Part shown: positions 1 to 1,127 of the stretch, piece by piece
Position numbering within the stretch: the stretch's first letter is position 1
How the letters are laid out: each line of letters opens with the position of its first letter
Assembly (NCBI GenBank): GCA_000004985.1
Contig: GG739542.1
Length of the DNA: 1,127 bases
From: Naegleria gruberi
Lineage: Eukaryota
Reading direction: 5' to 3' (one strand)
Program-made: the position numbers and the translations under genes
The notes under the pieces: generated by a model
Told to the model about the DNA's origin: nothing
Seen by the model: only the letters and a program-made list of their open reading frames with translations
Databases searched by the model: none

Positions 1-73
1 TAATATATAGACCATTGATCAATATTAATAAAATTATTATCTAATTAACGCAAAGTAAAAAATCAAATCGAAA

Positions 74-83
74 TTTTTTTTTT
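74..83. repeat. Homopolymer T10 (a G7 run lies at 131-137)
   Basis: AAATTTTTTTTTTCAC and CGAGGGGGGGTG, read directly. Confidence 0.9.
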
Positions 84-147
84 CACTTTTGTCGTCTTTC
101 GCGCAAAACAAGGGTAACTTAAAGTCACGAGGGGGGGTGTTGTGTCA

Positions 148-156
148 TATAAAAAA
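148..156 (+). promoter_or_regulatory. TATA-like element ATATAAAAA (approx.)
   Basis: CATATAAAAAAATC sits just 3-prime of a G7 run. The first downstream ATG is at 231, but it opens only a 26-codon ORF. There is no other support. Confidence 0.12.
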
Positions 157-365
157 ATCATTATTTAAATAACTCGAAGGTGCACTGCAAATTGTCGGAC
201 AAAATAATCCACTATAATAAACATTGTTTGATGCCAAACGTTCGGGAGGTAGTCCAAACGGAGCAAGTAGGAAGTAAATGCATTTTTGGGAAATACGGGG
301 TTTCGGAGTAATTTAAAATACTGTTTACAGACCGATTATTTCATCCGACATTATTTGTGGGCTTT

Positions 366-385
366 CCCTTCGAATCCCTTCGAAT
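366..385. repeat. Direct 10-bp duplication CCCTTCGAAT x2 immediately left of the array
   Basis: CCCTTCGAAT at 366-375 and again at 376-385, read directly. Confidence 0.9.
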
Positions 386-396
386 CGGGATAAAAA

Positions 397-515
397 CCCC
401 TACAACTTGTCAATTAAAGTATATTAATAGGGTTTTATTATATTAAAAAAGAAAAATATCCCCCAAATTATGAAAAAATATCCAAGTCAGGATTGAAAAA
501 TTTTCGAAAAAAAAA
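397..515. repeat. Repeat copy 1, diverged (~85% similar to later copies by eye)
   Basis: CCCCTACAACTTGTCAATTAAAGTATATTAATAGGGTTTTATTATATTAAAAAAG...TATCCCCCAAATTATGAAAAAATATCCAAGTCAGG aligns to later units with several substitutions and a small indel (A6 instead of A8, ATCCCCCAAATTA vs CTTTCCCGAACTT). Confidence 0.85.
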
Positions 516-554
516 CCCTACCACTTGTCAATTAAGACGAGTTGATAGGGTTTT
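512..554. other. Unit-internal inverted repeat / potential stem-loop: 9-bp arms AAAACCCTA (512-520) and TAGGGTTTT (546-554), 25-nt spacer CCACTTGTCAATTAAGACGAGTTGA
   Basis: The arms are perfect reverse complements. The same pair recurs in copy 4 (751-759 / 785-793) and copy 5 (871-879 / 905-913). It is imperfect in copy 1 (AAAACCCCTA, extra C) and copy 3 (AAAACCTA, missing C). Confidence 0.7.
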
Positions 555-635
555 ATTATATTAAAAAAAAGAAAATACTTTCCCGAACTTGAAAAAATAT
601 CCAAGTCAGGATTGAAAAATTTTCGAAAAAAAAAA
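516..635. repeat. Repeat copy 2 (120 bp); junction is A9 then CCC
   Basis: Read directly. Identical to copies 3 and 4 except for the length of the junction homopolymers. Confidence 0.95.
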
Positions 636-754
636 CCTACCACTTGTCAATTAAGACGAGTTGATAGGGTTTTATTATATTAAAAAAAAGAAAATACTTT
701 CCCGAACTTGAAAAAATATCCAAGTCAGGATTGAAAAATTTTCGAAAAAAAAAA
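636..754. repeat. Repeat copy 3 (119 bp); begins CC instead of CCC after A10
   Basis: AAAAAAAAAACCTACCAC here versus AAAAAAAAAACCCTACCAC in copies 4 and 5. Otherwise base-for-base identical. Confidence 0.95.
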
Positions 755-874
755 CCCTACCACTTGTCAATTAAGACGAGTTGATAGGGTTTTATTATAT
801 TAAAAAAAAGAAAATACTTTCCCGAACTTGAAAAAATATCCAAGTCAGGATTGAAAAATTTTCGAAAAAAAAAA
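755..874. repeat. Repeat copy 4 (120 bp)
   Basis: Read directly. Identical to the copy 2 body. Confidence 0.95.
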
Positions 875-917
875 CCCTACCACTTGTCAATTAAGACGAG
901 TTGATAGGGTTTTATTA
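875..917. repeat. Repeat copy 5, truncated after 43 bp (…TTGATAGGGTTTTATTA)
   Basis: Matches the unit through TAGGGTTTTATTA, then diverges (AGCG versus TATT in full units). Confidence 0.9.
911..916 (-). promoter_or_regulatory. Candidate polyadenylation signal AATAAA (minus strand), about 41 nt downstream of the TAG stop
   Basis: Plus-strand TTTATT at 911-916 reads AATAAA on the minus strand. A U-rich CTTTATTTTTGT precedes it in the putative 3-prime UTR. Caveat: TTTATT is common in AT-rich DNA and recurs in every repeat copy. Confidence 0.25.
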
Positions 918-956
918 AGCGAACAAAAATAAAGCAATTTCCTTGGTTAGAGAGTC

Positions 957-1127
957 CTATTGAATGTTTTTATTTACAGTATTTACAGACATCTTATTAC
1001 GGTACCAAGATAATGCCACTAATGGTCCTCCAGGGGATCGACGAGTAGGAGGTCTTTCACGTTGATTATTTACAGGTTCTTCCTCGGGTTCTTCGTAAGG
1101 TACTTCCTCTTGCTTCCTCTTCCGTTT
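957..1127 (-). CDS. 3-prime terminal coding fragment of an unknown protein; ORF open at the window edge, stop TAG at 959-957. Low-complexity C-terminus …KRKRKQEEVPYEEPEEEPVNNQRERPPTRRSPGGPLVALSWYRNKMSVNTVNKNIQ*
   Basis: Only one of the three minus-strand frames is open across 56 codons; the other two hit stops within about 20 codons. The minus strand is purine/GAR-rich (GGAAGAGGAAGCAAGAGGAAG), as is typical for the sense strand of K/E/R-rich coding, while the plus-strand readings give F/L-rich antisense-like peptides. Local GC is about 45% against about 30% in the spacer. I recognise no homology. At about 7% chance for a random 56-codon ORF, this is suggestive only. Confidence 0.4.
   Translation of the reverse strand, partial: KRKRKQEEVPYEEPEEEPVNNQRERPPTRRSPGGPLVALSWYRNKMSVNTVNKNIQ
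971..988. repeat. Tandem duplication of the 9-mer TATTTACAG (x2). The same 9-mer recurs at 1067-1075, and TGTTTACAG is at 322-330
   Basis: Read directly. The TTTACAG 7-mer occurs 4 times in 1.1 kb, against roughly 0.1 expected per strand. Confidence 0.85.

Follow-up and report, generated by a model that had tools for sequence, protein, structure and literature searches.

The ribosomal DNA (rDNA) of Naegleria resides on a plasmid, the circular extrachromosomal rDNA element (CERE), whose circularity is taken here from the literature (PMC5805870). In N. gruberi this molecule measures 14,007 bp, carries an endonuclease-like open reading frame (ORF) after the 28S gene, and has a non-ribosomal spacer (NRS) of 8,152 bp (36.7% GC) that includes seven families of repeats (34-371 bp); 31% of this spacer is repetitive, and it differs greatly from one species to another (PMC5805870). 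Tandem repeats have been recorded in related plasmids as well: the N. fowleri CEREs are told apart by an insertion of about 167 nt in a tandem repeat at position 6,207 (present in CM017919), the CERE of the N. fowleri LEE strain has a 168-bp tandem direct repeat and an rDNA region of 5,863 bp, and a 360-bp repeat discrepancy in the N. australiensis CERE was settled by PCR. In human rDNA the 28S gene is followed by several terminators, whose complex is also a replication fork barrier (PMC6281188); according to recent papers, next to nothing is known of the CERE sequences that control rRNA transcription, replication and the conflicts between the two (PMC13398248). Here we describe a 1,127-nt stretch of N. 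gruberi DNA (contig GG739542.1 of assembly GCA_000004985.1; the whole stretch is hereafter called the window), in which a tandem array of a 120-bp unit lies just past the end of the endonuclease-like ORF. Each young unit of this array contains a hairpin followed by a T-run, always in the orientation of the rRNA genes, and on balance we lean toward the view that the array is a copy-number-variable cluster of rDNA 3'-end or termination elements on the CERE, which might also pause replication forks.

The origin of the window was established from the ORF. An exhaustive HMMER scan showed that the minus-strand frame of the window is 100% identical to the last 56 residues of P0001, a 344-aa protein (GenBank AUH25140.1, "hypothetical protein [Naegleria gruberi]"), which agrees with the earlier proposal that the array stands beside a gene end. 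The contigs encoding P0001 and its relatives, retrieved via the protein, were used for comparison and were sorted into four lineages: A (the window, L001 and L006), B (L003, L004 and L007), C (L010, obtained by protein search) and D (L013, L022 and L025, obtained by a scan with the hairpin pattern described below). L001 was 98.6%, L006 96-98%, and the lineage B contigs about 89% identical to the window. Rfam placed the small-subunit (SSU), 5.8S and large-subunit (LSU) rRNA genes directly upstream of the ORF and on the same strand in L006, L003 and L007, and in L003 the whole layout recurred with a 13,799-bp period, which is compatible with either a circle or a tandem array. The internal transcribed spacer 1 (ITS1) of the homologous contigs was 33 nt long, a Naegleria-like length. 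Given that the ORF tail is identical to an N. gruberi protein and that rRNA genes lie upstream of the ORF in the homologous contigs, the window almost certainly represents the NRS of an N. gruberi-type CERE. The rRNA-sense strand corresponds to the minus strand of the window, and the order on it is the 28S gene, a conserved 3' flank, the His-Me endonuclease-like ORF, 43 nt, and the array; the 120-bp unit occurs at a single place on the plasmid.

A first-pass annotation of the window, made from its letters alone, had described a recently homogenised 120-bp tandem array with one diverged copy. Tandem Repeats Finder (TRF) reported the array at exactly the same place, 392-917 (period 120, 4.4 copies, 95% matches, score 922), and a gap-free repeat finder resolved five copies with spacings of 119, 119, 120 and 120 nt, which in the phase chosen by that annotation occupy 387/392-506, 507-625, 626-744, 745-864 and 865-917. 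Copies 2-4 and the 53-nt partial copy 5 differed only in A9 versus A10 and CC versus CCC at the unit junction, as had been stated, and the leftmost copy was indeed diverged, at 80% identity to copy 4, from which 22 substitutions and 2 gap columns separate it; its last ~44 nt were identical to the other copies. The annotation had overlooked a 43-nt imperfect palindrome that lies inside every young unit. When the locus is read on the sense strand, it consists of the stop codon, a 43-nt linker, n repetitions of a hairpin module H joined to a spacer Sa, a single H joined to a spacer Sb, and a degenerate hairpin H' (Table 1). H is composed of AAAACCCTATCAACTCGTCTTAATTGACAAGTGGTAGGG followed by T8-T10. 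The ~70-nt spacer exists in two forms, Sa and Sb, and the box CAATCCTGACTTGGATATTTTTT is found in either form. H' has retained the outer arms and TTAATTGACA, whereas its inner stem is gone, only T5 comes after it, and its fold has a z of about 0. The truncation of the last copy in mid-unit is only apparent and a matter of phase, because the array is made of five hairpin modules and four spacers and has a hairpin at both ends.

Unit counts were read from the assemblies. The young [H + Sa] unit was present three times in the window, once in L001, twice in L006, once each in L003 and L004, and four times in L007, and the variation in number was confined to this unit (n = 1 to 4). The young units were identical within each contig. 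Given that both the counts and the homopolymer markers differ between arrays, these data support recent, lineage-specific expansion and contraction of the young unit; the recent amplification that had been proposed for the identical copies was thereby borne out, as far as assembly collapse (see below) has not distorted the counts. Both lineage A and lineage B possess Sb and H', with substitutions peculiar to each lineage, and the adjacent ORF has a synonymous divergence (dS) of 0.23 across the A/B split. Since the diverged distal unit is common to both lineages it is old, and the distinction between old and young units predates the split, in good agreement with the old seed copy that had been postulated. 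The units are arranged head to tail and their counts differ between five assemblies (with the same caveat of collapse); the array is, as a kind, an rDNA spacer sub-repeat and a variable number tandem repeat (VNTR).

The RNA fold of the hairpin was about -20 kcal/mol, with a z of -4.9 for the minus strand and -5.7 for the plus strand, and on the transcribed strand this stable hairpin is followed directly by U10, which is the shape of an intrinsic terminator. The hairpin and T-run showed no difference between lineages A and B (0/49), in contrast to 19/117 differences (16%) in the spacer and linker next to them (Fisher p = 0.001); in the 43-nt linker, 9 of 45 aligned columns differed between the window and lineage B, and the array region is among the most diverged of the plasmid (83-89% identity in 200-nt windows, A versus B). 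The hairpin was also found in the more distant lineages, as AAAACCCGGTCAGTTTGTCTTCATTGACACTGACTGGG followed by T10 in lineage C (L010; repeat period 230 bp, ORF 30% identical) and as AAAACCCGGGCAGTTTGTCTTAATTGACACTGTCTGGG followed by T8 in lineage D (L013, L022 and L025; repeat period 311 bp), with folds of -24 to -26 kcal/mol and z = -5.7 to -7.4; in both lineages, boxes of the type CTCGACTTG with T-runs of their own come after the hairpin. The 3' flank of these lineages is 70-75% identical to that of A and B over the aligned part. Lineage D was uncovered when metagenome contigs were scanned with a degenerate hairpin pattern, which also returned L007 (9 of the 14 matches were attributable to chance); the eight single matches of the hairpin pattern in prokaryotic genomes were all consistent with chance. 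In the five aligned sequences 16 of 16 stem pairs were kept, three of them altered on both sides; the covariation score was matched by 3 of 500 shuffles, and shifted-register controls were 29-54% paired.

These comparisons bear on the possibility that the array is a neutral spacer minisatellite, a by-product of slippage or unequal exchange in which the hairpin was kept by chance or through palindrome-driven duplication. A neutral array would fit well in a spacer that is highly repetitive and strongly variable between species, and the copy number does vary without obvious constraint, the distal hairpin has decayed, and the unit length differs widely by lineage (119-120, 230 and 311 bp). It would not be expected to keep the hairpin and T-run invariant beside neighbouring sequence with 16% differences, nor to keep the hairpin, the sense T-run and the box where the 3' flank has fallen to 70-75% identity and the ORF to 30% or is absent; moreover, the changes in the stem preserve pairing and the orientation is fixed in all lineages. 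A neutral origin is thus unlikely, if still worth taking seriously. The minisatellite/VNTR description given by the first-pass annotation stands with respect to the differing copy number, and the neutrality that goes with it has been weakened by the invariant hairpin and T-run and by their recurrence in distant lineages.

The polarity of the modules was examined in the same alignments. On the rRNA-sense strand, a run of T8-T10 comes after the stem in four of four lineages; on the antisense strand, the T-run is not conserved in lineage C. The box (CCTGACTTG in the window) was found in the sense orientation only, with a T-run within a few bases after it; each unit of lineages A and B has one such box, and each unit of lineages C and D about three (L010 11654-12037; L013 1836-2360); hairpin, T-run and box modules are always oriented as the rRNA. 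The hairpin loop (TTAATT/TTCATT) is conserved and asymmetric. Such one-sidedness is difficult to reconcile with a replication or maintenance element, be it a part of the CERE origin, a dedicated fork barrier, or a partition or tethering array resembling the yeast 2-micron STB or the family of repeats (FR) of Epstein-Barr virus (EBV): a duplex palindrome bound by a homodimer would be expected to lack an asymmetric conserved loop, and the T-run is conserved on one strand only. The consensus for the autonomously replicating sequences (ARS) of yeast was also absent from the window and from L007. One could nevertheless envisage such an element, given that an array of dyad-symmetric units with 27% GC lies on an autonomously replicating, high-copy nuclear plasmid, that the one origin of the plasmid has been located to a 2.1-kb fragment somewhere in the NRS, and that rDNA fork barriers are normally found at the 3' end of the transcription unit. 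We consider this explanation improbable, and its fork-barrier version is compatible with termination and not exclusive of it.

In lineage D the array begins about 460 nt past the 3' end of the LSU gene with no ORF between (L013 1430-1940; L022 1-500; L025 234-1046), and the SSU gene of this lineage is 98.4% identical to the gruberi type. Because lineage D keeps the array without the ORF, the array belongs to the 3' flank of the rDNA unit and not to the ORF; in all four lineages the LSU gene is closely followed by repeated elements of fixed orientation. A second, unrelated hairpin followed by T8-T9 is located about 190 nt past the LSU end and is conserved in all lineages (L007 6600-6630; L010 9530-9590; L013 1590-1630), and in lineage D the stem CCAAG/CTTGG is replaced by TTCAGAG/CTTTGAA with the hairpin fold kept. 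This hairpin is a candidate for the primary rRNA 3'-end or termination signal. Given that it has kept its shape despite the changed stem, the sense-oriented hairpin with T-run is a device used more than once at this end of the rDNA unit.

The ORF-less arrays also bear on a link between array and ORF, in which the repeat would be an mRNA 3'-end or stability signal of the endonuclease gene, or a DNA target beside an inserted free-standing homing-endonuclease gene. The array of lineage D has no ORF to serve, and a single signal would suffice for an mRNA 3' end. In lineages A and B only 43 nt do separate the stop codon from the first hairpin, in lineage C as well the ORF is directly next to the array, AATAAA overlaps the base of each hairpin, and the ORF is intact (dN/dS 0.46-0.56) and present or absent by lineage; in addition, the stem sequence CTCGTCTTAA...GGTAG resembles the I-PpoI site, CTCTCTTAAGGTAGC. 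Even so, it is very improbable that the array exists on account of the ORF. A bolder combination would make the hairpin and U-run factor-independent, bacterial-style terminators for RNA polymerase I (Pol I) and the ORF a free-standing homing-type gene that was inserted at, and perhaps still recognises, the terminator palindrome. We regard this combination as doubtful; if true, it would explain the presence or absence of the ORF between otherwise near-identical rDNA plasmids.

The reading that we favour, a variable cluster of rDNA 3'-end or termination elements, could operate as follows. The young unit would grow and shrink through replication slippage or unequal recombination between identical hairpin modules, and variants would then drift among the ~4000 plasmid copies of a cell. 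At the downstream end of the rDNA unit, the modules would serve redundantly to terminate transcription or to form 3' ends, and also for the ORF where it is present, most likely in the form of an RNA hairpin followed by a U-run and possibly aided by a factor that binds the box; the same cluster may pause replication forks, as in other rDNA spacers. Termination itself we hold more tentatively, at somewhat less than an even chance, and several observations weigh against it. The known Pol I terminators of eukaryotes are sites bound by proteins and not hairpins. Direct reading of the unit revealed no Sal box GGGTCGACCAG, GTCGAC or Reb1 consensus, the box having only a partial TCGAC/GACTTG in common with known terminator consensus sequences, and a simple terminator scan did not call the hairpins. 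The G-U pairs favour the sense strand only slightly, and a single C-A mismatch of lineages A and B would turn into a G-U pair if the antisense strand were the one that folds. The covariation is drawn from five sequences of three or four lineages, and because of this small sample it is supportive rather than decisive. The hairpin and T-run ~190 nt past the LSU end may already be the main Pol I stop, in which case the array would be a back-up or would serve the ORF. As to the variable copy number, low unit counts may reflect assembly collapse, since contigs break inside the array: six of them (L002, L005, L008, L009, L010 and L022) end inside it or at its edge.

There is next to no chance that the array is the interior of a MITE- or Helitron-like transposon or a plant repeat methylated under the guidance of small interfering RNA (siRNA), as the first-pass annotation had suggested: its general shape, with few units between unique flanks and a gene close by, and the telobox-like motifs AAACCCTA are all that favour it, and the source is a Naegleria rDNA plasmid, no terminal inverted repeat or other transposon hallmark flanks the array, the unit is confined to a single locus on the plasmid, every relative has collinear spacer on both sides of the array, there is no depletion of CpG (observed/expected 1.29 in window 1-1127), and the argument from RNA-directed DNA methylation is baseless because the locus is not from a plant. 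Four other candidates were dropped on the rDNA linkage, namely spacer DNA of a plastid or mitochondrion, an intron from an insect or plant (GTAAAT/TTACAG motifs), a terminator array of a low-GC bacterium, and baculovirus hr-type repeats. Rfam gave sub-threshold matches to the SpF36 small RNA (32.5 bits versus a gathering threshold of 48) and to mir-454, which we ascribe merely to a terminator-like hairpin. A BLAST search of phage and plasmid collections with the whole window returned nothing but a chance 48-nt AT-rich match, and exact 29-35-nt unit patterns had no match in viral, prokaryotic-genome or metagenome contigs.

Table 1. Features of the window, listed from the ORF leftward (T-runs are given on the rRNA-sense strand)
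Feature	Position	Strand	Remarks
Last 56 codons and TAG stop of the 344-aa His-Me-finger (PF05551, I-PpoI-like) endonuclease homologue	957-1127	minus	Frame open to the window end
Linker, 43 nt, from stop codon to first hairpin	914-956	minus	Last bases overlap AATAAA (911-916)
Hairpin module 1, nearest the ORF	865-913	minus	AAAACCCTATCAACTCGTCTTAATTGACAAGTGGTAGGG then T10
Young spacer Sa, copy 1	794-864	minus	Box CAATCCTGACTTGGATATTTTTT at 831-853
Hairpin module 2	745-793	minus	T10
Young spacer Sa, copy 2	674-744	minus	Box at 711-733
Hairpin module 3	626-673	minus	GG in place of GGG; T10
Young spacer Sa, copy 3	555-625	minus	Box at 592-614
Hairpin module 4	507-554	minus	T9
Old spacer variant Sb	437-506	minus	Box at 473-495, then ...CATAATTTGGGGGATATTTTTC...; orthologue in lineage B
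Degenerate distal hairpin H'	392-436	minus	Sb + H' = "copy 1" of the first-pass annotation
10-bp tandem TCCCTTCGAA, 2.2 copies	365-386		Abuts H'; single copy in lineage B
Dispersed direct repeat of the plasmid spacer, ~293 bp, one copy	58-350		From sequence comparison with related contigs

The ORF next to the array was examined through P0001, which matched PF05551 (zf-His_Me_endon, the fold of I-PpoI-type homing endonucleases) at 1e-28. The 56-aa tail had no match in a word-index protein search, an exact-product look-up or Pfam, and a PDB profile search with the endonuclease homologue found no relative of solved structure. The ORF has been called "likely a pseudogene" (PMC5805870). It was intact in every lineage sampled, with 344-355 aa, and 526-565 aa in distant relatives (L001 361-1395; L003 7861-8916; L005 986-2029), and the dN/dS values given above were obtained by the Nei-Gojobori method at dS up to 0.64; the ORF is probably a functional gene. 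In lineages A, B and C it is an insertion that separates the array from the conserved 3' flank, and, since lineage D has no ORF there, it constitutes a presence/absence polymorphism at exactly that point.

Other features of the spacer were noted in the course of the comparison. The ~293-bp repeat on the left flank of the array has a second copy about 1.9 kb further along the NRS with 89-96% identity (L001 3680-3971; L007 8818-9109 and 10738-11030). A second NRS array consists of a 101-bp unit repeated 2.5 times (L001 2788-3054; L003 10313-10570; L007 9847-10104), each unit of which contains the telomere-like AACCCTA, a motif that also occurs in the hairpin arms of the 120-bp array. Lineages A and B (L006 versus L003) were identical over the SSU gene (2020/2020) and over ITS1-5.8S-ITS2 (325/325), in contrast to 83-89% identity in the ORF/array region and 77-84% in another NRS patch; evolution along the plasmid is mosaic, which points to recombination or to a constraint that is very uneven. 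The SSU gene of L007 has a twin-ribozyme intron (193-1120), with a GIR1 branching ribozyme and an ORF for a 245-aa His-Me endonuclease, whereas the SSU gene of L003 (1463-3482) is uninterrupted at 2020 nt despite the spacer lineage that the two contigs have in common, so intron presence differs within lineage B. In window 1-1127 GpC has an observed/expected ratio of 0.45, and GpC is wholly absent from the array. ARAGORN found no tRNA in the window. A 17-nt direct repeat, D2 (324-340 and 982-998, 82%), was put down to chance.

The array by itself is ordinary, and it is already known, as the CERE has been fully sequenced twice; the two entries (AB298288 and MG699123) differ in length by about one unit. 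The part that may be useful is the anatomy of the candidate signals. No description of the hairpin, T-run and box anatomy, of its persistence across lineages or of its independence from the ORF was found in the CERE literature that was searched, though part of it may already be published. For the 3' boundary of the rDNA transcription unit, concrete candidates are now at hand in the hairpin with T-run and in the CTCGACTTG box, and the N. gruberi CERE has been cloned and is transfectable. The variable array is also a possible strain marker, and it serves as a warning that short-read CERE assemblies break or collapse there.

Of the known systems, the NRS repeats of the N. gruberi CERE (MG699123, strain EGB; AB298288, strain NEG-M; PMC5805870) are the closest, being in the same neighbourhood of the same molecule. 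The announcement of that sequence (PMC5805870) counts the repeats only, without mention of a hairpin, a T-run, a box, copy-number differences or a function. The 168-bp repeat just after the 28S gene of the N. fowleri CERE (MT741533) and the 360-bp region of N. australiensis are likewise NRS tandem arrays downstream of the rDNA cistron, and they too show length differences between strains or sequencing runs; their unit lengths are unlike 120 bp, and the likeness is one of description. The yeast 2-micron STB and the EBV oriP family of repeats are also composed of short, tandem, dyad-symmetric units on a multicopy nuclear circle, but the strand-specific T-run of the Naegleria array and its position at the 3' end of the rDNA point elsewhere, and we know of no partition protein for the CERE. 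In shape the modules are closest to bacterial intrinsic terminators, with a stem-loop of -20 to -26 kcal/mol followed by U8-U10 and an A-tract upstream; unlike those terminators, they reside on a eukaryotic nuclear plasmid that is transcribed by Pol I, and possibly by RNA polymerase II or III, and have a long stem with an AT-rich base and internal mismatches. In position they resemble the Pol I terminator and fork-barrier clusters (the mammalian Sal boxes bound by TTF-I, the Reb1/Nsi1 and Fob1 sites of yeast, and the Xenopus T3 box), which are likewise orientation-fixed, T-rich and located just downstream of the rRNA unit. The GACTTG in the box resembles the Xenopus T3 box, GACTTGC (a literature search on this point returned nothing usable), and no terminator-binding factor of Naegleria is known to us. 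Those clusters are duplex protein-binding sites in chromosomal tandem arrays of rDNA, whereas the rDNA of Naegleria is a single-cistron circle, and the best-conserved module at its 3' end is a hairpin followed by a T-run.

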